A DNA stretch of 64,000 nt from a virus (IMGVR_UViG_3300005711_000021:32001-96000); one strand, 5' to 3'; positions 5,983-64,000 are shown, numbered from the stretch's first letter. Translations and numbers: made by a program. Notes: generated by a model not told the origin, from the sequence alone.

Positions 5983-6324
5983 ATGGATGTTGTAGCATTA
6001 TTAGACAATTATGGATTACCTATCGCAATGATTGCAGTTTTTATTGGGTTTACTATCAAAATGTATAATGATAATAATGAACAAAATTCACGTAGAGAAG
6101 AAAAAATGTATCAACAAAATCAAGAGAGAGAAGATAAACTTTATAAAACCATTGACGATGTAAATTCAATAAACAAAGAAATAAGTGAAACGAATAAGGG
6201 GCTAACTGAAACTAATAAGAAACTTACTGAGACAAACAAAGAACTTGTACAACAATTTAAAACAGAAGTTCTTATCATAAAAAATGACATTGAAGATATA
6301 AAACATGCAGTTTTAAAAAACTAA
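5983..6324 (+). CDS. BhlA/UviB-like holin
   Basis: 113 aa with a single N-terminal TM helix (YGLPIAMIAVFIGFTI), then REEK/REDK motifs and a coiled coil ending IKNDIEDIK. RBS AAAGGAG. Confidence 0.6.
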   Translation: MDVVALLDNYGLPIAMIAVFIGFTIKMYNDNNEQNSRREEKMYQQNQEREDKLYKTIDDVNSINKEISETNKGLTETNKKLTETNKELVQQFKTEVLIIKNDIEDIKHAVLKN

Positions 6325-6647: not shown

Positions 6648-6692
6648 ATAGTTTATTTTAAAGAGTATTATAAAGATAGCGAGGTGAAATCC

Positions 6693-9600
6693 ATGAAGAA
6701 GAATAAACGTTATACATATAGCGACGAAGTTAGAAGTCGTCTTTTATTACAAAGAGACAAAGAAATTGACCAAGTCGCAAAAAATATATTAGTAAAAAAA
6801 TATGAAGATGAATTAAAAAAAGAATATCCTGATGCCAATGCAAAAGAATTAAAAAAGAAGATTGTTGATAAATATAAAAAAGAATATTATGACATACGTA
6901 GTAACATTATTGCTCCTTTGTATCATGATAAAGTTTCTGACATTATTAAGATTGGTAAAGAGTCCGTAATTATTAGTAATACCAAAAATTATAATCAAGA
7001 AACAACTTATGCAGAAAATACTAAACTTCCAGATATATATAAGAAGATAAGTATTAAATCTGATTTATTTGATGTTATGGAGAAGTATGGTACTTCGTAC
7101 AATAATACATCTAAAACACAAACAGGTTCTGCACTTATTTCAAATGTTATTGAATTTGATAAACTTAATTATTCTTATACAACTGTAAAAGCATCTCAAT
7201 CATTAGAACATGCAAATAAAGCTTATGAGTTCTTTAAAAAGTCTAAGAAATTTATGGCTTATGATTATGAAACAATGGGTGGTACAGATGAATTCGGATA
7301 TAAACGAGTAGATGCTTTAACAGAGTTTGCTTATAGTGTATTTGATAAAGAAAGTGGAAAATCCAAAACAGTTAGTACAATTGTTGGTTTAGATAAAAAA
7401 CAAGAAACACGTTTTAGAGAGCTTATTAAAAATGTAAATAGGGATGGCATTTCTTCTAATGAACAAGATGTCATCTATCGTCGTATCGGTTTGTATGGTC
7501 ATAAAAATACAAGCTTTATTAAAGATGCAGATGGAATGTATAAAGTTGAGAAGATGGCTGATCTTGAATATGGTCATAGATTCTCAGATGCAGATTTAGA
7601 AAGAGGTTTTAAACGCCTTAGAGATATTTATGAAGATCAAGCTAAGTTAGGTAAAACGACTGGTGGTCTTTATAAATGGCAAGAACGATATGCTGAAATG
7701 ATCGGTCTTATGAATAATAAAGATATGGCAGTACTAGACTACAATGGTGTTATTGCCGATAGACCTTGGCAAAATAAATTCTTAGCTACCATGGATTTAA
7801 ATGAATCTCAAAGACAAGAGTTTATGAAAATCGCTGGCATTAATGATATGTTCTTAGATACAACTAGTGAACGTTTTTATGATGTGCGTGTACATACTCG
7901 TTATGCTGCAAATAATGTAGGTTCAGAAGCTTACTATTCAACTGATGAAGCTAAAAAAAGATTAAAAGGGAACACACCATTCTCACAAGAAGGTATTACA
8001 AGAACACTCTTTGCAGAAGAATATGAAAAAGCAGGTGGTGGTGCTCATACTGCAGGATTCGATACACAACTCCTTGCAAAACTAGCAACAGATAAAAATG
8101 GTTTTGGAATGAATGGAGAAACATTTGTAGACCGTATTTATAGAGATGCAAACCTTAGTAAATCAGCTATTAATAGCTCTGTTAGAACTGGGAATTTAGA
8201 TTTGTTAATGGCAAATCAATCTGTTCAATTCTTTGGAGGCGGTAATGGTCCATTAAGTTATGTTTATGATCCAGTTAGTAAAAACTATAGAACAGCTAAT
8301 CAATATTCACTTGGAGAAACTGTATCTAAAGAATTTACTAAAGAAAATCCAATTAAACGTGGACGATTATATACATTAGATTTTGCTGGTCAAGTTAATA
8401 TGACAGATGAATGGGTAAAAAACATTGATGGTATCCATGATGAATATGCTCAGAAATCTTTATATGCTATTAAACTTAATCCATTCTTTGATGAAAAAGT
8501 AGCAGGTGCTCACCAGGGATTACGTGGTCATTCTGTAATGTTCTTTAATTCAAAAGAACAAATGGAAGCTACATTATCTAATATGACAAAGATAGGTGAA
8601 AGAGATTCTGCAACCAATCCTTTTAGATTTTTATCTGGAAAAGCAGGAGAAGAAGTAAGAGAAATGTTTACAACACATAACGTTGTAAATGGAAAAATTA
8701 TAAAAGGTGAATCTCCAGTATCTATTAATGAAATTATTACTAAAGCAACTTATGCTGATGTAAATGATACTGCTGCCAGAATGATTCGTGAAGACAGTTT
8801 CTCTAAAGCGATGAACTTCTCTCAATTCTATGATAAACTTAATGAATTTAATGAAGCTCCTGTAACAAAAAAAGAAGCAAATAATATTTTACTTCAAATC
8901 ATGCAATCTAAAGATAGAAAAATTTCTAAACGAGTTGCATCAGGTAAAGTACTAGAACTTTCATATGCTGATATTCAAGAAACATTAGGTTATTCATTAG
9001 ATAATGGAAAAACGCATAATCTGATTTCTAATACATTAAATAATCAAATGACAGCATTTGAATATATGTCTAGTCAGAATGAAGTATTCAAAGCTATTAA
9101 AAATCATTTCTATGAACAAGGTTATGATAGCGACCAATTCCAATTTAAGTTTGAAAACATCTTAAATCAATTAACAGAACAAGAGATTAATTCTATTACC
9201 AAAAATCCTCGTAAATCAAAAGAGTTCTGGAATAATGGAAAGCCAACTGAATTATTTGGAAAGGACTTAAATTATTTTAACTTTGATGTAAGAGATTTCT
9301 TTAGGGAGAGAATAGAGTCTCCTATACAAGCTTATAGCAAACCAATAATTGATGAAGATATATTAAGAATTGATTTGGGCCCAGGTAAAGAATATAACTT
9401 TGTTAATAACTTACTTCGTCGTACAAGTTATACAACTGAAATGAATGCTGCTCAAAAAAATAATGAAGGTATTACTCAACTTCGTAATTTCGTAAAGAAT
9501 GTTCAAGCAGATAAAAGCTATGGTGATTTATTTTCTCAATTCGATGATGCTAAGATTGCCTCTTATCAATCATCTGATATGTTTGCTAGTTCTATCATAC

Positions 9601-12600
9601 AAGAACTTAGAGAATATAGAAAAGCAAATCCTACTGCAGGTTATTTAGCAGAAGCTTATACTCAAGACGCAACAATTAGAAATAAAATATTAGATAGTGC
9701 TGCTAGTGATCCAAATCTTTATAAACGTATTGCAGAGATAGATGCTAATTCACCTACTTATGTTGTAGCAAAAGGTGATCAACAGCTATTACGTTCACAT
9801 GCTCAAAACATTGTAAATAATATCTTAGTAGATGATATCGATCCTTTTGATTATGCAAAAGAATATGGTTTTTCAAATAATCAAGCTAAACATATGAAGT
9901 ATTTATATAATCAAGCAAAAGAAGAATATACTGATTTCATGACAACATTCTTAGATGCTTTTACTTCAGGGAAAAATACATCATTTACTTATAATGCTAA
10001 AGATAAAACATTCGCTTTAATGAATGGTTCACAAAAAGCTTTAGATATAGACTTACCTAAATTAAAAGCTATGGATGGGACATTCTTTATAGATATGGGT
10101 TCTACTAAAGTAGCACTTCATGCAAAGATAGATGCACAGCGTGCTATTAAAAAAGGTACTTATGCAGGCAGTAAAGATGTGAATGTTATTTCTACTTTAG
10201 GAGCAGCTTTTAATGATACAACTAGTATGCTTAATTTCTACAAGGTTGCTAAAAAAGGAGATAGCAACAATGATATTTTAAGACGTACACAAAGCGTCCT
10301 TCAAAATGTCAAATCAGGTATTCTTTCAGGTTCAAGTGTTGACTTTAATGACATCTTAGATATTCAAACACCTTTTCGTGTAGACTATAAAGATATCATG
10401 GGACTTGCTCCTTTATTAAAACAAAATAAATTATTAGAAGGTAGACAATGGAGAGATCCAGAGTTTTTATCTAAATTAAGACTTGATAAAACATTTGAAA
10501 CTTCTGATGATGCTTATCGTGAATTATTCCAGAAAAACATTCCTGAGATGTTAAGAGTTATCGCTGAACAAAAAGGTGGATTCAATGATGAAACCTGGAT
10601 GGGTATGATAGCTAAGAACATGTCTTTCTTAGGAAAAGAAACACAAATAGCTGACTTTGTTGGTATGATTGATGGTATCGCTCATAGAGCTGGTATTGAA
10701 ATGTATAACAACATGCGTCCAGTTATTAACCAAACTCGTGCTGTGCTTTATCGTACAGAAGATTGGGAGAAAGCTTTAGCATCAGATGAATTTAAAGGAC
10801 GTAATGTAGGTTTAAAGCCAGTTACTTCAAGCCTCTCTTCTCAACAAATTTTAAATAGAGAGTTAACTGGTGTAGGAAGAACATCTGTTGAGTTACAAGT
10901 TGGTAAATTAAATATTTCAGAAATTCATTACCGAGGAGCTATTACTGATTACTATAACAAAAAAGGTAATTTATCTCAAAGAGACCAAACAGTATTTAAT
11001 AAATTAAAGTCTGTCAACTTAACAGAACAAGAACAAGTAGTAGACCCTAGAGTTGCTAGTAAGTTCTTTAATCGTATGCAAGAACAAAAGATTAGTTCTA
11101 GAAAACAATTAAGTTTCTATATGAATATTAATGAACAAACAATAGATGCTGTTAATGAAATAAAAAGTATGAGGCCTAGATTTGAAATTGATTCAGAAAC
11201 AGGTTTACTTCAATTTAAATATGGAAAAGGCGTTGAAAAGAAACGTCATGATAAATTATTAGACATTGAAGGTTATAATAAAAGCTATACTCAAATGTCT
11301 AAAATAACTGGTAAGTTTAATCAAGGTTATTTTTCTAAGACAGATGGCATGCTTATTAGAGAAGAAGAAATTAATAAACTTATCTCTGGCTTTAAAACAG
11401 CAGAAGAAGCAACTAAATTCTTAGATCAAACTTTTGATTCAGCTTGGTATGTAAAACCAAATGACATGGTAACTTATAAGAAAATGCTTAATGGCTTCGT
11501 TGAAAAAGGTATGGGCGATGTTCTTGCATTTGGATTAGGTGAAAGCGATGATAAAGTTAAACAATATTTATCTGCTATTAATAAAGGTTATATTGGAAGA
11601 GTTGCAACAGATGATTTTATCAATGAAGAGATACTAAGTAAGTTTGATTCTAATATTGGTAGAAAAGTTGGTATCAAATCTAAAGAAGAATTAAAAGACT
11701 TAATCTATAAAGAACGTTATGAAGCATTCGATACGTTAAGAGATATCTTTGGTAAAGAACATGATTTCTCATTATTAGCTAACCATTCACAAGGTAGCCA
11801 TAAAAATACACAACTAGGCTTTGAAGAATTAGTTGGGACAATGAAATATCATTTAACCAAAAATGGTATGACAGAAGATGATGCTATGTCTAAGGTCTTT
11901 AGTGACTTAACAGCTGCTGAACATAAGTTTATAAATATCGATGGTGTAAGTTTAAAAGATGGTGTTATTCAATTTCCTGACCATTTAAAAGGTGGACAAG
12001 ATTACTATGATAATGCAGCCTTAGAAAAGATACTTGATAAAGATGAATATAAAGCCATGAAAGATGGGTTACGAGTAAATTACAACGGAAAAGAAGTAGG
12101 TAGCTTTGTAATGACTGGTCTTTCAGAAGCAAGAGATTCACAATGGATGAGTGGTAAAACAGATCCTGAATTTATTGAAAGCATTGCTGATTTACAAGAA
12201 AAAGCAGCTCTTGCTACAGGTAAAGAAAAAGAAAAACTTGAAGCCAAAATACAAAGTTATCTTTCAGCTTTAGATTGGAATACAAAAGGACAAAAGATTA
12301 CAGATAGAGAAATTCAAATGTTAGAATTACAAAGATATGACCAAAATCTTGTAGACCTTATGCAATCTAAGTTAGATAATAATACTTTTGAATCTGTAAT
12401 GGGACATGTTTTACAAAGAGATGAAAAAGGTGCATTTGTTAAACAAGGTGATAAATATCTTATTGATGAATCTGTTCAAGGTAGAGCAATGTTATCTGAA
12501 ATGACAGATACATATCGTGAAAAGTATTTACGTGGGCAAGGTCAAACATTATTTGATATTACAGATAAAAAAATAGATGACATATTAAAAGCTAATTATT

Positions 12601-15278
12601 CTAACGAAAGCGTAAGAAGTGGTATTAAAAGCTTAGTTAGCAGTCAAGGTGAATTATCAAAAGATACTGCAGAACATTTATATTCTATGACTCGTGGTAT
12701 AAAAGCTGTTCGATTTAATGGAGCAGGTTCTTATAGTTTAGAACAAATGCAAGAAGAAGGATTTGAAATAAAGAAAGCAAATCAAATCTTTAAATCATTT
12801 GATCAAGGTAAATGGTCTTTAGAACATCCAGATAGTATATTCAATAAGAGCTTAATATTAGACTTTGGTGAAGAATTTAAATTAGATTCAGAACGCTATT
12901 TAGCACTTCCTTATGCCCCTTCAAAATTAACAGGAGATACAGTAGTTAGAGAAAACTTCCAAAAGAAATTGAATTCTGTTTTAACTTCTTTGAATAAGAT
13001 TGAAAACTTTAATAGAGGTGTTAAACAACCTAATGATACAAAAGAAAAACTTATGGCTAGTTTTAGAAAATATCGTACAGAGTTGCAACAAGAAATAGAA
13101 CTATTTTCTGCCACAGGTAAGAATGGAAATATGGGAGACTTTAGTGTCCGCTTAGACCAGTCTTTTGTAGGTAAATCTTCAGGTGTTGTTGCACTTAATC
13201 CTTTAGAGATTGAAGCTTTTAGTAAAAAAGAAGGAGCAAATGTCCATGAGCTTCTTGGTACATCTTATAGAAAAGCTTTAATTAGTTTAGGCGATGAAGA
13301 TAAAGCTCTAGAGTTTATGAACTATGAACCATTATCTCGTTCTAAGTTTATGGGTAAATCTATCCTTAATCATTATTCAGATGGTTTATATTTAAATGCT
13401 TCTTATGGTGGAGAAGACATCTTTAAAGAGATGGGAATCTTAAGTGAGAACTATCTAAAAAAATCTGGCTTTGATTCTATGGATGCTCTTAAAAAGCATT
13501 TAGAAACAGAAGGTATTATGGTTAATGCAATTCGTACACCAACTATCAAAATGGATTCTACTGCTCCTGCTATGATGTATTTAGATACTTCATTAAAAGG
13601 TAAAAGAGTTAAGACATTATTAGAACCTTCTCTTGCTAGAACAGAGGACTACGATGGGGACCAACCTATCTTCTCTATTTTTAAAAACATAAATGGTGAA
13701 GATTCATTAATAGCAATGAGAAATGGTCATGGTGATGATCTAGTATGGAAAGATATACAAGCTAACATGGTAAGTAGAGGAGTTGGTTCTCATCAATACT
13801 TCCACGATAAGACATATAAGACATTAATTGAAGATGCTCAAAAGTCATTCCAAAATGGTAGTTTCATTTCTTTAACTGGAGATACTGCATTAGATGAAAG
13901 AATATACGCTGAGTTCAACATTGCTCCTACATCAGAAGCTATTATGAAAAATTCAGAAGCTCTAGATGAATTACAAAGCATTTATAAATCAAAACATGGG
14001 GCAGCTTTTAATTTAACAAATGCTGATGATATTGGTAGAGTTTCTGATATTATTGAATCTATGGAAGGCAATACAAGAGAACGTTATTTAAAAGCAGCAG
14101 CTTTTGATCAAGCCTTTGCAAAAACAGAAACAGGTTCTATTGCAAAAGTACGTAAAACAGCTATCGGTGAAGTCAATAACCCATTAGCAAGATTAAGAAG
14201 AACTGCTGACTTAGCACTTCCTAAATTTGGACCAGATTCAGAAAAACGTATGATTCTTCAAAAAGCTTTTGAAGATATTGAGCAAGAGGTTATCTCTGCT
14301 AAAAAAGGAAGTCTTAGAGACTACTGGGATAAAACATCTACATTCAAATCTGCATTAAGTAATTTAACATCTGGAGACACTCAACGCAAAATTGCGGGCA
14401 GAAGAGAAATGACAGAATGGTTAAATTTAAACATGGCTGGAGACTTTGAAAAAAGTGCAAGTCATTTAGCAGCTATTAATTATATGCCTAATACATCTAA
14501 AGAAGATGCTTTTAATTATATTCGTGATACATTTGTAGAAACAATTGGAAGTTTTGATTCTTTAGAATTGCAAAGATTAAAACAATATGATACTCTAGGA
14601 AGTAGTATTAAATCTTATGGATTAATGAATAATGCAGGAGATTTATTAAAATATGCTCCTAATGATAAGACCACTCTTAAAAATATCGGAGTTAATGCAG
14701 CTGTTGAAGCAGGTTTACTAGATACAACTTTAATAGATACAAATCATATTCAAGGTGTAACAGCAATTAAAATGCATGGCGTTTCTCAAGATGTTTTAAA
14801 AGATGGAAATAACGAAATCAGAGAGCAAGTTACAAGTGGTCTTAAAAAAGGCATGTCAGAAATGGCACAATCCATGACAAAGGGGATGTCAGAATTAGCT
14901 GGTTCTAAATTAGGACTAGTATCTGCAGGATTAGCAGCAGCTTATATGATAACAGGTTTTATTGGTAACAATGCATCTCACCCTGCAGATATGCAAGCTG
15001 CACAACAAATGACACAACCTAGTGGCGGTGGGTTACCACAACTAAGTGATTACGGAGATTCTTATCAAAATAGTATGCCTTCTAATAGTGGATATGTTAT
15101 TAATGTTAGAGGAAATGGTTCGCCACAAACATTAGCTAGAGCACAACAAAGCATTTCTCAAACTATGGGTAATACAATTGATGCGAACATAAACGTAAGA
15201 ATGAATATTATGGAATCTAACGGTAATATAAACGATAGATATCTTGATCAATTACTTGTTAACGCTATCGGAAGATAG
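6693..15278 (+). CDS. Giant protein: N-terminal DEDDh 3'-5' exonuclease fused to a putative single-chain two-barrel (DPBB) RNA polymerase, with a C-terminal hydrophobic helix; likely virion-associated
   Basis: ATG 6693 after GAGGTG (track start GTG 6684). Exo motifs YDYETMG (D194,E196), YNGVIAD (D359), AHTAGFD (H455,D460). RNAP-like motifs KMLNGFVEKG (K1600/K1608), AIRTPT (R2284), EDYDGDQ (D2322/D2324/D2326). C-terminal KLGLVSAGLAAAYMITGFIG. Confidence 0.7.
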   Translation: MKKNKRYTYSDEVRSRLLLQRDKEIDQVAKNILVKKYEDELKKEYPDANAKELKKKIVDKYKKEYYDIRSNIIAPLYHDKVSDIIKIGKESVIISNTKNYNQETTYAENTKLPDIYKKISIKSDLFDVMEKYGTSYNNTSKTQTGSALISNVIEFDKLNYSYTTVKASQSLEHANKAYEFFKKSKKFMAYDYETMGGTDEFGYKRVDALTEFAYSVFDKESGKSKTVSTIVGLDKKQETRFRELIKNVNRDGISSNEQDVIYRRIGLYGHKNTSFIKDADGMYKVEKMADLEYGHRFSDADLERGFKRLRDIYEDQAKLGKTTGGLYKWQERYAEMIGLMNNKDMAVLDYNGVIADRPWQNKFLATMDLNESQRQEFMKIAGINDMFLDTTSERFYDVRVHTRYAANNVGSEAYYSTDEAKKRLKGNTPFSQEGITRTLFAEEYEKAGGGAHTAGFDTQLLAKLATDKNGFGMNGETFVDRIYRDANLSKSAINSSVRTGNLDLLMANQSVQFFGGGNGPLSYVYDPVSKNYRTANQYSLGETVSKEFTKENPIKRGRLYTLDFAGQVNMTDEWVKNIDGIHDEYAQKSLYAIKLNPFFDEKVAGAHQGLRGHSVMFFNSKEQMEATLSNMTKIGERDSATNPFRFLSGKAGEEVREMFTTHNVVNGKIIKGESPVSINEIITKATYADVNDTAARMIREDSFSKAMNFSQFYDKLNEFNEAPVTKKEANNILLQIMQSKDRKISKRVASGKVLELSYADIQETLGYSLDNGKTHNLISNTLNNQMTAFEYMSSQNEVFKAIKNHFYEQGYDSDQFQFKFENILNQLTEQEINSITKNPRKSKEFWNNGKPTELFGKDLNYFNFDVRDFFRERIESPIQAYSKPIIDEDILRIDLGPGKEYNFVNNLLRRTSYTTEMNAAQKNNEGITQLRNFVKNVQADKSYGDLFSQFDDAKIASYQSSDMFASSIIQELREYRKANPTAGYLAEAYTQDATIRNKILDSAASDPNLYKRIAEIDANSPTYVVAKGDQQLLRSHAQNIVNNILVDDIDPFDYAKEYGFSNNQAKHMKYLYNQAKEEYTDFMTTFLDAFTSGKNTSFTYNAKDKTFALMNGSQKALDIDLPKLKAMDGTFFIDMGSTKVALHAKIDAQRAIKKGTYAGSKDVNVISTLGAAFNDTTSMLNFYKVAKKGDSNNDILRRTQSVLQNVKSGILSGSSVDFNDILDIQTPFRVDYKDIMGLAPLLKQNKLLEGRQWRDPEFLSKLRLDKTFETSDDAYRELFQKNIPEMLRVIAEQKGGFNDETWMGMIAKNMSFLGKETQIADFVGMIDGIAHRAGIEMYNNMRPVINQTRAVLYRTEDWEKALASDEFKGRNVGLKPVTSSLSSQQILNRELTGVGRTSVELQVGKLNISEIHYRGAITDYYNKKGNLSQRDQTVFNKLKSVNLTEQEQVVDPRVASKFFNRMQEQKISSRKQLSFYMNINEQTIDAVNEIKSMRPRFEIDSETGLLQFKYGKGVEKKRHDKLLDIEGYNKSYTQMSKITGKFNQGYFSKTDGMLIREEEINKLISGFKTAEEATKFLDQTFDSAWYVKPNDMVTYKKMLNGFVEKGMGDVLAFGLGESDDKVKQYLSAINKGYIGRVATDDFINEEILSKFDSNIGRKVGIKSKEELKDLIYKERYEAFDTLRDIFGKEHDFSLLANHSQGSHKNTQLGFEELVGTMKYHLTKNGMTEDDAMSKVFSDLTAAEHKFINIDGVSLKDGVIQFPDHLKGGQDYYDNAALEKILDKDEYKAMKDGLRVNYNGKEVGSFVMTGLSEARDSQWMSGKTDPEFIESIADLQEKAALATGKEKEKLEAKIQSYLSALDWNTKGQKITDREIQMLELQRYDQNLVDLMQSKLDNNTFESVMGHVLQRDEKGAFVKQGDKYLIDESVQGRAMLSEMTDTYREKYLRGQGQTLFDITDKKIDDILKANYSNESVRSGIKSLVSSQGELSKDTAEHLYSMTRGIKAVRFNGAGSYSLEQMQEEGFEIKKANQIFKSFDQGKWSLEHPDSIFNKSLILDFGEEFKLDSERYLALPYAPSKLTGDTVVRENFQKKLNSVLTSLNKIENFNRGVKQPNDTKEKLMASFRKYRTELQQEIELFSATGKNGNMGDFSVRLDQSFVGKSSGVVALNPLEIEAFSKKEGANVHELLGTSYRKALISLGDEDKALEFMNYEPLSRSKFMGKSILNHYSDGLYLNASYGGEDIFKEMGILSENYLKKSGFDSMDALKKHLETEGIMVNAIRTPTIKMDSTAPAMMYLDTSLKGKRVKTLLEPSLARTEDYDGDQPIFSIFKNINGEDSLIAMRNGHGDDLVWKDIQANMVSRGVGSHQYFHDKTYKTLIEDAQKSFQNGSFISLTGDTALDERIYAEFNIAPTSEAIMKNSEALDELQSIYKSKHGAAFNLTNADDIGRVSDIIESMEGNTRERYLKAAAFDQAFAKTETGSIAKVRKTAIGEVNNPLARLRRTADLALPKFGPDSEKRMILQKAFEDIEQEVISAKKGSLRDYWDKTSTFKSALSNLTSGDTQRKIAGRREMTEWLNLNMAGDFEKSASHLAAINYMPNTSKEDAFNYIRDTFVETIGSFDSLELQRLKQYDTLGSSIKSYGLMNNAGDLLKYAPNDKTTLKNIGVNAAVEAGLLDTTLIDTNHIQGVTAIKMHGVSQDVLKDGNNEIREQVTSGLKKGMSEMAQSMTKGMSELAGSKLGLVSAGLAAAYMITGFIGNNASHPADMQAAQQMTQPSGGGLPQLSDYGDSYQNSMPSNSGYVINVRGNGSPQTLARAQQSISQTMGNTIDANINVRMNIMESNGNINDRYLDQLLVNAIGR

Positions 15279-61088: not shown

Positions 61089-61976
61089 TTGAATAGCGAC
61101 AATCATGATTTTATACAAACTCAAAGAGAAAAAGAATGGGGAGAAGTAGAAGATTTAGTTATGCTTTATCAAAAACAATTTGAAAAAGATGCAGACTATA
61201 AAACAATCGCTGCTGCAAAAGATGCAGCTGAAGAGCTATTAAAACGTTTCTCTCCATTATTTAAGAAATACTTGGTATTGCTACAAACAGGACAAATTGA
61301 CTACAATGACATTGAAACTAAATTATTTGTTTCTTCTTTTATAGAAGATGTTCGTTTACAAAAAGCTCTTAAACGTACAAAGCAAAAATATGAATTTAAA
61401 TCAGATATTTCTAAACGCTTTAAGTTTGTTATAGAAACTTATGGTGCCGCTTCTGAAGATGAAATCCTAATGGATCTCAAAATGATTTTCCTAGTTATTG
61501 CTAAACGTTATAAACAAATGGGTAGAACATTTTGCGGTTATCTCTATAATGCCTATCGTCATGAAGTATCAAGACATATAAAAAAATACATAAAGAATCC
61601 TATTAACATTCCTTATAAAATATTAGAATTTGAAGAATGTGTTAATGGAGATATAGATAAATCTATAGAAATAAGTTATGAAGATAAATATTATGAAAAT
61701 AGTACAGGTATTCCTGATTTAAATTGGATGTTAGGAAAAGATTGTTCTGAACTATTTGAAGAACTTAATCCTATAGATAGAAAAATACTTATTAAATATT
61801 ATTTAGAAGAATGGAACGACAGACAAATATCTGAAGCGTTCGGTATACATATAAATACAGTTAATCAAAAAAGAAGATTAGCAATACAAAAAATCGCAAA
61901 GAAATTAAGTATACAGAATAAAGACATAAAACGTAATAGACGTAGCGGTAAAAAAGCTATTTTACCAATTGTTTAG
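61089..61976 (+). CDS. Phage-encoded sigma70-family RNA polymerase sigma factor
   Basis: Region-2-like AAEELLKRFSPL and FLVIAKRYK...FCGYLY. Region-4 HTH LNPIDRKILIKYYLEEWNDRQISEAFGIHINTVNQKRRLAIQKI. TTG start. Confidence 0.75.
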   Translation: MNSDNHDFIQTQREKEWGEVEDLVMLYQKQFEKDADYKTIAAAKDAAEELLKRFSPLFKKYLVLLQTGQIDYNDIETKLFVSSFIEDVRLQKALKRTKQKYEFKSDISKRFKFVIETYGAASEDEILMDLKMIFLVIAKRYKQMGRTFCGYLYNAYRHEVSRHIKKYIKNPINIPYKILEFEECVNGDIDKSIEISYEDKYYENSTGIPDLNWMLGKDCSELFEELNPIDRKILIKYYLEEWNDRQISEAFGIHINTVNQKRRLAIQKIAKKLSIQNKDIKRNRRSGKKAILPIV

Positions 61977-62588: not shown

Positions 62589-62780
62589 ATGACTTATCCT
62601 ATGGATTCAAATAAAAATACAAAAGTAAAATTCACAACTAACTTAACGGTAGATTGTTTAAAAAGTATTGATGAATTAAGTCATATTATAAAAGTAAAAA
62701 ATAGAAATGAAGTTATAGAATTCTTAGTTAAAAAGGAGATGTCAAAATATGAAGTGGATAAAAAAAGAGATTCCAACTGA
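62589..62780 (+). CDS. Ribbon-helix-helix (CopG/Arc-like) DNA-binding protein
   Basis: ATG 62589 after AAGGAGG (track start 62544 is too far upstream). Strand KVKFTTNL, helix VDCLKSIDELSH, helix NRNEVIEFLVKKE. Confidence 0.65.
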   Translation: MTYPMDSNKNTKVKFTTNLTVDCLKSIDELSHIIKVKNRNEVIEFLVKKEMSKYEVDKKRDSN

Positions 62781-64000
62781 AATCATTAAACAGATTTCAG
62801 CTAAATATGAAATTAATGAAACACTTGCACAAGTACTTTTAAATAGAGGTCTTGATGAAGAAAAGATTAATATGGTAATCAATAACATACATGAAGCAAT
62901 GATTGATCCAACTTTACTTACTAATGCTTCTTTAGCTTCTGAAAGAATTTATACTTATTTAAATGACCCAAAAGCTTATATTATCGTCAGAGCAGATTAT
63001 GACGTAGATGGTCTTACATCTGGTTACATATTAGGTCAGACGTTAAGAGATTTAGGTAAGTGTAAAGTAGATGTATCTTATCCTGAACGTTCTGATGGGT
63101 ATGGTCTTAGAAAAGAATTTTGTGAAGCAGTTATTGATTATAAACTTAAAAGCGGTATTGAAAGAGTACTTCTTATTACAGTAGATAATGGTATTACAGC
63201 AGTAGATGAAGTAGAACTTCTTCAAAGTGCTGATATAGAAGTTATTATTACTGACCACCATTTACCTAAAGAAATTCTTCCTAATTGTATTATCGTTGAT
63301 CCTCATGCAGATGAAGAAGATATATTTAATCATTTAGCTGGATGTGGTGTTGCTTTTAAAGTATCACAACTTATTGCAAGATTATTTGATAACGAAAGCT
63401 ATATGAATAATTTATTAGCACCACTTGCTATTGGGACGATTGCAGATATGATGCCTATGTCATTAGAAAACATTGCTTTTTGTATCTATGGATTAGCACA
63501 AATTAATAGCGAAGATTGTCCAATTGGTCTTAAAGCTCTTAAAGAATATCTTGGGAAAGAATCATTAAGTTTCTCAGATATTGGATGGGAAGTGGCTCCT
63601 AGATTAAATGCTTGTGGACGCATGGGTGATGTACAATTAGCATCTAGATTATTCTTTACGAATGATATGGACTATGACACTATTATGGATGATATAGTTG
63701 TTGAAATAGATAGAATGAATAATGACCGTAAAGAACTTACTGAAGAAAAAACAAAAGAAGCTTTTAATCAAATATCAGAAGAAGATCATATTCAATTAGC
63801 TATTCTTAATGATTGTAAAGAAGGTATTGCAGGTGTTGTTGCTAATAAGATTATTGCAGAATATCAAAGACCTATTGTTGTTCTTGTTAAGAGTGAAAAC
63901 TGCTATGTAGGTTCTGCTAGAAGTACATCAGCATGTAGTATTCAAGATATCTTAAAACAAGAATTTGAAAAAGGTAATGTTATGGCTTATGGTGGTCATG
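62749..64000 (+). CDS. recJ: Single-stranded DNA-specific exonuclease RecJ (3' truncated; not in ORF track)
   Basis: ATG 62749 after AAGGAG. MKWIKK...AQVLLNRG, DYDVDGLTS, PERSDGYGL, LITVDNG, IITDHH, LAGCGVAFK, IGTIADMMP, APRLNACGR, GSARS, GGH at the window end. Confidence 0.92.
   Translation, partial: MKWIKKEIPTEIIKQISAKYEINETLAQVLLNRGLDEEKINMVINNIHEAMIDPTLLTNASLASERIYTYLNDPKAYIIVRADYDVDGLTSGYILGQTLRDLGKCKVDVSYPERSDGYGLRKEFCEAVIDYKLKSGIERVLLITVDNGITAVDEVELLQSADIEVIITDHHLPKEILPNCIIVDPHADEEDIFNHLAGCGVAFKVSQLIARLFDNESYMNNLLAPLAIGTIADMMPMSLENIAFCIYGLAQINSEDCPIGLKALKEYLGKESLSFSDIGWEVAPRLNACGRMGDVQLASRLFFTNDMDYDTIMDDIVVEIDRMNNDRKELTEEKTKEAFNQISEEDHIQLAILNDCKEGIAGVVANKIIAEYQRPIVVLVKSENCYVGSARSTSACSIQDILKQEFEKGNVMAYGGH

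Follow-up and report, generated by a model that had tools for sequence, protein, structure and literature searches.

A predicted DnaQ-type exonuclease domain joined to a putative two-barrel polymerase module in a giant virion-type protein of an uncultured phage

The viral DNA analysed here (IMGVR_UViG_3300005711_000021:32001-96000; 64,000 nucleotides, referred to below as the window) is part of one viral contig of 117,989 bp with an estimated completeness of ~50%, is AT-rich (GC ~0.29) and has nearly all of its coding sequence on the + strand. Its second giant open reading frame (ORF), P0001, has no stop from a GTG at 6684 through 15278; the first ATG is at 6693, where the database copy (P0002, 2861 aa) starts. 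Close to its N-terminus P0001 contains what we predict to be an intact DEDDh 3'-5' exonuclease domain of the DnaQ type, and its C-terminal half bears near-invariant motifs of the kind found in two-barrel (cellular-type) RNA polymerases. The features are collected in Table 1; residues of P0001 are counted from the GTG at 6684, and conservation counts (x/80) refer to full-length relatives, one per 50% identity cluster.

Table 1. Features of P0001 and of the flanking giant genes (window coordinates)
Feature	Position	Strand	Remarks
Upstream giant gene, 1965 aa	56..5953	+	Orthologue of 0305phi8-36 gp145, virion structural protein; BLASTP E 2e-62
Giant ORF P0001	6684..15278	+	2864 aa counted from the GTG at 6684; positional counterpart of gp146
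DEDDh 3'-5' exonuclease domain, residues ~185-502, DnaQ-like fold (predicted)	7236..8189	+	~100-residue helical and hairpin insert between ExoI and ExoII
ExoI, D194-x-E196, in FMAYDYETMG (consensus D-x-E-T-x-G-G)	7263..7271	+	D 80/80, E 80/80
ExoII, N354-x4-D359, in YNGVIAD (family consensus N-x-x-x-F/A-D-x-P)	7743..7760	+	N 75/80, D 79/80; D359 codon 7758-7760
ExoIII, H455-x4-D460, in AHTAGFD (A-H-T-A-x-x-D), 'h' variant of DEDD	8046..8063	+	H 80/80, D 79/80
K1600-x6-E1607-K1608, candidate basic pair of a beta-like barrel (putative assignment)	11481..11507	+	K 77/80, E 79/80, K 79/80
beta'-like barrel signature, R2284-x-P2286-x5-S2292, then D2322-Y-D2324-G-D2326	13533..13661	+	R 78/80, P 79/80, S 76/80, D 80/80, 79/80, 79/80
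Most hydrophobic stretch of P0001, residues ~2740-2763, possible membrane segment	14901..14972	+	Kyte-Doolittle maximum 1.69 at residue 2743
Conserved C-terminal tail (GYVINV...NINDR), common with gp146	15075..15263	+	hhalign, family 2798-2860 vs gp146 2471-2527, E 8e-4; BLASTP E 3.5e-4
Downstream giant gene, 3152 aa	15314..24772	+	Orthologue of 0305phi8-36 gp147, baseplate hub and wall-degrading domains; BLASTP E 1e-64; phrog_20474 E 5e-191

The exonuclease domain and its fusion

A preliminary description of the locus, drawn from the sequence, had proposed a complete DEDDh set of the DnaQ/RNase T type with a long insert between ExoI and ExoII, and the positions it gave (D194/E196, D359, H455/D460) are exact when counted from 6684. 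We found these acidic and histidine residues conserved in 79-80/80 relatives and, in a 30-sequence full-length alignment with a mean column identity of 24%, exonuclease-motif residues made up eight of the only 30 invariant columns. The family form of ExoII (N-x-x-x-F-D) is the usual one of DnaQ, and the domain holds an additional invariant aspartate, D400. ExoI and ExoII are 163 residues apart in P0001 and ~90 in E. coli epsilon; the long spacer proved to be a partly conserved, family-specific insert, helical and with a hairpin. Moreover, the 118-kb contig (six-frame ORFs of at least 150 aa) contains a single D-x-E-[TS]-x-G and a single D-x-D-[GSA]-D pattern, both in P0001, which goes beyond chance.

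The RNase H-like fold by which the preliminary description had wished the domain to be judged was recovered: our model shows an alpha/beta fold of this class that superimposes on solved DEDDh members, with the catalytic residues on the expected elements (where strand 1 ends, and where the helix after strand 4 and the last helix begin). Its closest exonucleases are the epsilon subunit of E. coli Pol III (DnaQ; PDB 1j53) and the DEDDh group around it (ExoI, RNase T, TREX1/2), epsilon being the best structural match and DNA editors standing on top by a tie-level margin. Foldseek searches against the PDB returned predominantly DEDDh entries with weak E-values; against viral models they gave two strong matches (long uncharacterised or "YprB RNase H-like" viral proteins), followed by DnaQ-like phage proteins.

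The domain differs from its DEDDh relatives in being unseen by sequence models, in its ~100-residue family-specific insert and in D400. No significant Pfam, PHROG or PDB-sequence match was obtained with the whole protein, the domain or profiles of 4, 6 and 30 sequences; PF00929 (RNase_T) gave no match above cut-off for the domain and none anywhere in the 118-kb contig; and tblastn with the exonuclease domain and with the polymerase core found no match among 50,697 phage records. The 30-sequence family profile reached Exonuclease I at E 0.57, in an alignment pairing ExoII with ExoII and ExoIII with ExoIII. The domain is a DEDDh member at the level of fold and motif, outside Pfam family PF00929. 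A further difference from DnaQ-type exonucleases, which occur as a small subunit or as a domain of a DNA polymerase, is its location within a 2,864-residue virion-type protein. In the explanation that we favour, to which as a whole we give an even chance, residues ~185-502 would form an intact, Mg-dependent DnaQ-type 3'-5' exonuclease under strong purifying selection. One distant relative (L010:9935-11053; IMG/VR 3300047321_000238) retains ExoI and ExoII but has lost the ExoIII histidine (SININGKD for AHTAxxD), and to judge from this substitution its nuclease may be inactive.

Among 1.84 billion representatives, an exhaustive profile search identified 99 proteins, 80 of them with at least 2,400 residues, and in all 80 the exonuclease domain lies at residues ~100-550. 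The fusion recurs in ~80 clusters at 50% identity, and the ~2,850-aa architecture is present on independent contigs from NCBI, ENA, Logan and IMG/VR, with the same ~2,000-aa upstream and ~3,100-aa downstream neighbours. We therefore regard the fusion as real, and a frameshift or assembly join of two genes was rejected because the same length and architecture appear on independent contigs of several sources. The N-terminal fusion first proposed, to a protein that we find to bear R-x-P...DxDGD, and its retention in homologues are both upheld by these ~80 clusters and by one lineage in which the protein is represented by four collinear genes.

In that GC-richer lineage (Logan ERR9538793 contig; L014:114-8777), consecutive genes of 591, 568, 562 and 1153 aa follow the order of P0001, the first with the exonuclease, the third with K-x6-EK and the fourth with R-x-P and DYDSD. 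The junctions look genuine, with a GGAG-type ribosome site before an ATG and with TTGA and ATGA overlaps, and the split indicates that the N-terminal ~600 residues of P0001 correspond to an autonomous module that stays beside the rest. The N-terminal modules of split forms measure 591-669 aa, and in all relatives seen the exonuclease and the remainder are either fused or encoded by adjacent genes; a homologue search centred on the polymerase part and aimed at exonuclease-free members returned six close relatives only. A Rep3-type replication initiator gene lies 3' of the L014 split genes, and a Rep3 gene is also found beside the exonuclease module in locus L015; both elements may be phage-plasmids.

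The polymerase-like C-terminal half

The R-x-P to DxDGD spacing of the beta'-like signature is 38 residues in P0001, compared with ~35-44 in beta', in gp96 of Thermus phage P23-45 and in gp99 of Bacillus phage 0305phi8-36, and the K-x7-K-G spacing of the candidate beta-like pair is that of E. coli beta GDKMAGRHGNKG. K-x7-K and DxDGD are separated by 722 residues, which resembles the ~730 that we roughly estimate for a beta-beta' fusion and is unlike the 140-residue connector in gp66 of the crAss-like Cellulophaga phage phi14:2.

Profile comparisons were made with hhalign between the 80-sequence family profile and a 120-sequence gp66 family, 66-70 proteobacterial beta/beta' sequences, P23-45 gp96 and 0305phi8-36 gp99. 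At most the DxDGD region was aligned in any of them, with probabilities of 10% or less: E was 0.003 over 14 columns against beta' (NADFDGDQM) and 0.039 over 57 columns (probability 1.3%) against P23-45 gp96 (FRNP...DFDGD), nothing significant was obtained with the phi14:2 gp66 family (E 0.29-0.71), and no similarity to gp99 was seen. As a control, the structurally validated gp66 family was equally weak against beta' (E 0.017), and these polymerase families are described as having little in common beyond the DxDxD region (PMC10770324). PF00623 and PF00562 had no match in the phage's own contig. An AlphaFold2 model of residues 1500-2620 was poor (7-sequence alignment, pLDDT 54), its structure search being uninformative, and a language-model neighbour cluster that was 98% PF05183 RdRP (score 0.87) serves as a lead only.

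One could accordingly read the C-terminal half as no polymerase at all: DxDGD would have some other function, structural or metal-dependent, in a tape measure or ejection protein whose only enzymatic domain is the nuclease. The lack of matches in the Pfam, PHROG and PDB-sequence searches, the poor model, the low hhalign probabilities and the complete absence of DxDxD from gp146 of phage 0305phi8-36 (see below) all suit such a reading. We nonetheless think it improbable, given that R-x-P, the 38-residue spacing and D-x-D-G-D are conserved in 76-80/80 relatives and align with beta' and gp96, that validated polymerases of the gp66 family compare just as weakly with beta', that the language-model lead points to PF05183, and that K-x7-K and DxDxD fall into separate genes in the split form L014, like beta and beta'. 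The RNA polymerase of the preliminary description stands in part: its motifs are near-invariant, but the AlphaFold2 model is poor and profiles align the motif region or nothing. On these motifs we designate the C-terminal half a putative two-barrel RNA polymerase.

Two single-chain virion polymerases invite comparison. P23-45 gp96 is a tape-measure-fused virion two-barrel RNA polymerase for which no exonuclease domain is mentioned (PMC10770324); like P0001 it is a giant protein in tape-measure position with R-x-P...D-F/Y-D-G-D (PMC10770324), but P23-45 is a siphovirus, the gp96 polymerase is N-terminal rather than C-terminal, and there is no significant similarity beyond the motif. With phi14:2 gp66, a crAss-like virion RNA polymerase with ~1,600 residues without homologues and no reported exonuclease (bioRxiv 10.1101/2020.03.07.982082), P0001 shares a giant single-chain virion-type protein, a DxDxD motif (in P0001 that of a putative barrel) and other giant virion proteins alongside; the gp66 barrels, however, are ~140 residues apart as against ~720 between the candidate motifs of P0001, whose phage is contractile-tailed.

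Gene neighbourhood and the Bacillus phage 0305phi8-36 counterpart

The three giant genes of the window form a block orthologous to gp145, gp146 and gp147 of Bacillus phage 0305phi8-36, all three of which are annotated in the phage record as found in virions by mass spectrometry. The annotation of gp146 (L100:22623-30236; EF583821 52623-60236) is 'hypothetical tape measure protein', with the exonuclease domain unannotated. Residues 2709-2837 of P0001 match gp146 (BLASTP E 3.5e-4), and the family exonuclease profile aligns in collinear fashion with the central part of gp146 (hmmsearch on this single sequence, E 1.7e-4; hhalign, E 0.0096), pairing with DIETTG at 1223, with the R-x-x-A-K-Y insert typical of the family, with NVADAD and with HLARAD at 1685. 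The similarity of P0001 to gp146 is confined to this domain and to the ~130 C-terminal residues. The hypothetical tape measure of this cultured phage seems to hold a DEDDh domain at ~1200-1700, in the same gene slot and with the same C-terminal tail as in P0001; the domain differs in being in mid-protein. D-x-D-x-D is absent anywhere in gp146, and 0305phi8-36 carries a separate PF05183-like polymerase, gp99. From its sequence, gp146 appears to carry the same exonuclease domain without the polymerase motif. If the match holds, the nuclease is not tied to a polymerase in cis but goes with the tail-lumen protein, which weakens the idea of proofreading.

Genes located before the window encode a portal, a protease-like protein, the major head protein and a tail sheath (phrog_16991, E 1e-61), and the P0001 slot follows the sheath, tube and chaperone genes and lies between the gp145 and gp147 orthologues. 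The sheath marks the phage as contractile-tailed and not crAss-like; a crAss-like affiliation was rejected on this ground and for lack of gp66 similarity. The context implied by the preliminary description is corrected accordingly: P0001 is the counterpart of a tape-measure-like virion protein in a contractile-tailed, 0305phi8-36-related phage. That this large phage is a distant relative of 0305phi8-36 and P0001 its tail-lumen giant virion protein in tape-measure position belongs to the favoured explanation, which taken whole could as readily fail as hold.

The upstream giant protein has no family match, its orthology to virion protein gp145 being nevertheless clear; a ~2,000-aa gene likewise precedes the exonuclease-polymerase gene in loci L001/L002, L004 and L007-L010, and a 5'-truncated one does so in L003. 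Between the first two giant genes, a 113-aa ORF (5983-6324) matches phrog_9829 (E 4.5e-10) and, weakly, Rz-like spanin families, and ORFs of ~100 aa occupy the same spot in L001/L002, L003 and L004. In the downstream giant protein, residues 2207-2858 match a PHROG 'endolysin' very strongly, and a markedly hydrophobic segment lies around residue 2790. Further 3' lie genes for an M23 peptidase, tail fibres, a primase, a DnaB-like helicase, a sigma-70 region-4 protein and a RecJ-like protein; the last two (a RecJ-like DHH exonuclease) belong to the replication block, at 61089-61976 and 62749-63999, and the sigma-like factor suggests that transcription of later phage genes relies on the host polymerase.

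Just beyond the window, two ORFs (L012:844-2247 and L012:2494-4638; contig 96844-98250 and 98494-100641) encode the phage replicase, a DnaE-type Pol III alpha with PHP, NTPase, finger and HHH_6 domains. These ORFs are ~240 nt apart, with the break inside the NTPase domain (PF07733 positions 2-103 and 103-260); the gap may reflect an intron, the remnant of an intein or a true split. No separate epsilon was found in the ~50%-complete genome that carries P0001.

Possible roles of the nuclease

The reading that we favour, which we judge about as probable as all else together, combines the tail-lumen position, the intact DEDDh domain and the polymerase signatures into an injected enzyme acting on DNA 3' ends. 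P0001 would be packaged in the virion and would enter the host together with the DNA or before it, and its exonuclease, if active, would act at entry on DNA 3' ends, most likely those of the incoming phage genome; resection could then expose a single-stranded template for the polymerase. On this view the nuclease would not edit the nascent transcript. For the characterised single-chain two-barrel polymerases phi14:2 gp66 and QDE-1, single-stranded DNA is a much better template than duplex DNA (bioRxiv 10.1101/2020.03.07.982082). This preference, the slightly better matches to DNA editors and the presence of one nuclease per protein molecule lead us to prefer a role at entry over transcript editing, by a small margin and with each step conditional.

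Several observations weigh against this account. RNA-acting DEDDh enzymes (3'hExo, Pop2, CAF1, CRN-4) score within 1-2 Z units of DNA-acting ones, so that either DNA or RNA may be the substrate, and the polymerase is putative, identified at motif level. A 3'-5' exonuclease at a duplex end leaves a 5'-ended strand and thereby supports outward transcription only; template exposure consequently needs a suitable gene layout, on which the half-complete contig is silent. That almost all family members keep the nuclease alongside intact polymerase motifs fits functional coupling as well. Furthermore, the hhalign match of gp146 to the exonuclease is weak (E 0.0096, probability 4%), and profile searches of the whole 0305phi8-36 genome found nothing, the gp146 similarity being seen in direct local comparisons only.

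Some of these points would suit a transcript editor, that is, a nuclease that trims 3' RNA ends after misincorporation or backtracking by the fused polymerase, in place of Gre/TFIIS-type cleavage. The 80 proteins in which the nuclease residues are near-invariant are also those with near-invariant polymerase motifs, the two parts are never apart in the relatives seen except as neighbouring genes, one nuclease per polymerase suits a role in cis, and in coronaviruses a DEDDh enzyme, nsp14 ExoN, edits for an RNA polymerase. Set against this, the nuclease seems to be retained in gp146, which lacks DxDxD altogether, the exonuclease is ~1,800 residues from the DxDGD site, and the best structural matches, if only at tie level, are DNA editors. 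We hold this reading to be unlikely, and the stricter proposal, in which the DEDDh domain genuinely serves a fused two-barrel polymerase as an editing or backtrack-rescue nuclease, to be slightly less likely still. Were it true, this would be the first beta/beta'-type polymerase with a dedicated exonuclease site, and the RNA-polymerase lineage would have its own equivalent of coronavirus ExoN and of proofreading by DNA polymerases.

No likelier, in our view, than the transcript editor is an independent injected effector, riding on the ejected carrier and directed against host nucleic acids or defence molecules (DNA or RNA 3' ends, small oligonucleotide signals). Relatives of gp66 sporadically bear unrelated fused enzymes (NADAR PF08719, 2OG oxygenase PF13532, SF1 helicase), an indication that ejected giant proteins can carry cargo domains, and gp146 has the nuclease without polymerase motifs. 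The domain of P0001, however, is essentially universal and fixed in position in its family, unlike the sporadic crAss-type cargo, and the few copies expected per virion are ill-suited to bulk degradation. In precomputed Pfam assignments for the phi14:2 gp66 relatives P0128-P0214, PF08719, PF13532, SF1 helicase domains, PF25176 and PF18760 are fused in many, and giant ejected polymerases seem to collect enzymatic cargo. Among the functions first suggested for P0001, proofreading is weakened by gp146 without DxDxD, and a nuclease acting on genome ends or host nucleic acids at injection gains relative weight.

A two-barrel enzyme acting on DNA had also been suggested. PolD is a DNA polymerase, and its exonuclease subunit DP1 is an Mre11-like phosphoesterase, not DEDDh, and a separate chain. 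The likeness of P0001 to archaeal PolD, in which a two-barrel core (DP2) is paired with a 3'-5' exonuclease (DP1) (PMC4996933), is a conceptual parallel only. The two-barrel module might act on DNA in this manner or prime replication with a DEDDh proofreader, or the DEDDh domain might be the missing epsilon-type editor of the DnaE-type replicase. Three points speak for such a role: the two-ORF replicase is of the Pol III alpha type, the rest of the 118-kb contig yielded no PF00929-type exonuclease, and epsilon is the best structural match. A DNA-polymerase reading is made unlikely by the phage's own DnaE-type replicase, and nothing favours dNTP use; the gene lies in the tail module, outside the replication module, a separate DnaQ may lie in the half of the genome beyond the ~50%-complete contig, and PHP domains can edit on their own. 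We think this explanation very improbable, the least likely of those considered.

We thus regard the interpretation in the preliminary description as supported in part: nuclease and fusion stand, the polymerase is putative, and the roles discussed above are candidates. Experimental work has identified virion-delivered two-barrel RNA polymerases in only a few phage groups (crAss-like gp66, P23-45 gp96 and the multisubunit phiKZ-/AR9-like enzymes), none of them reported with an exonuclease. Full-text literature searches yielded no description of an exonuclease on a phage two-barrel polymerase, and neither the gp66 preprint, the P23-45 paper nor the jumbo-phage survey of Iyer et al. mentions one. 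Two known kinds, the virion or tape-measure-fused two-barrel polymerase and the DEDDh nuclease, are here newly combined, in a family of at least 80 sequence clusters from uncultured phages (related contigs, 167-250 kb) that joins a DnaQ-type nuclease, intact by motif, to a polymerase signature within a tail-lumen protein. Since the family is invisible to Pfam and PHROGs, its genes are now annotated as hypothetical or tape-measure; an immediate experimental handle is offered by cultured 0305phi8-36, whose gp146 seems to contain this nuclease as well. If the polymerase is real, one could test by what route such an enzyme reaches its template as the DNA enters, whether a separate editing site can serve a cellular-type polymerase, and which enzymatic cargo is delivered by tape-measure-like proteins.

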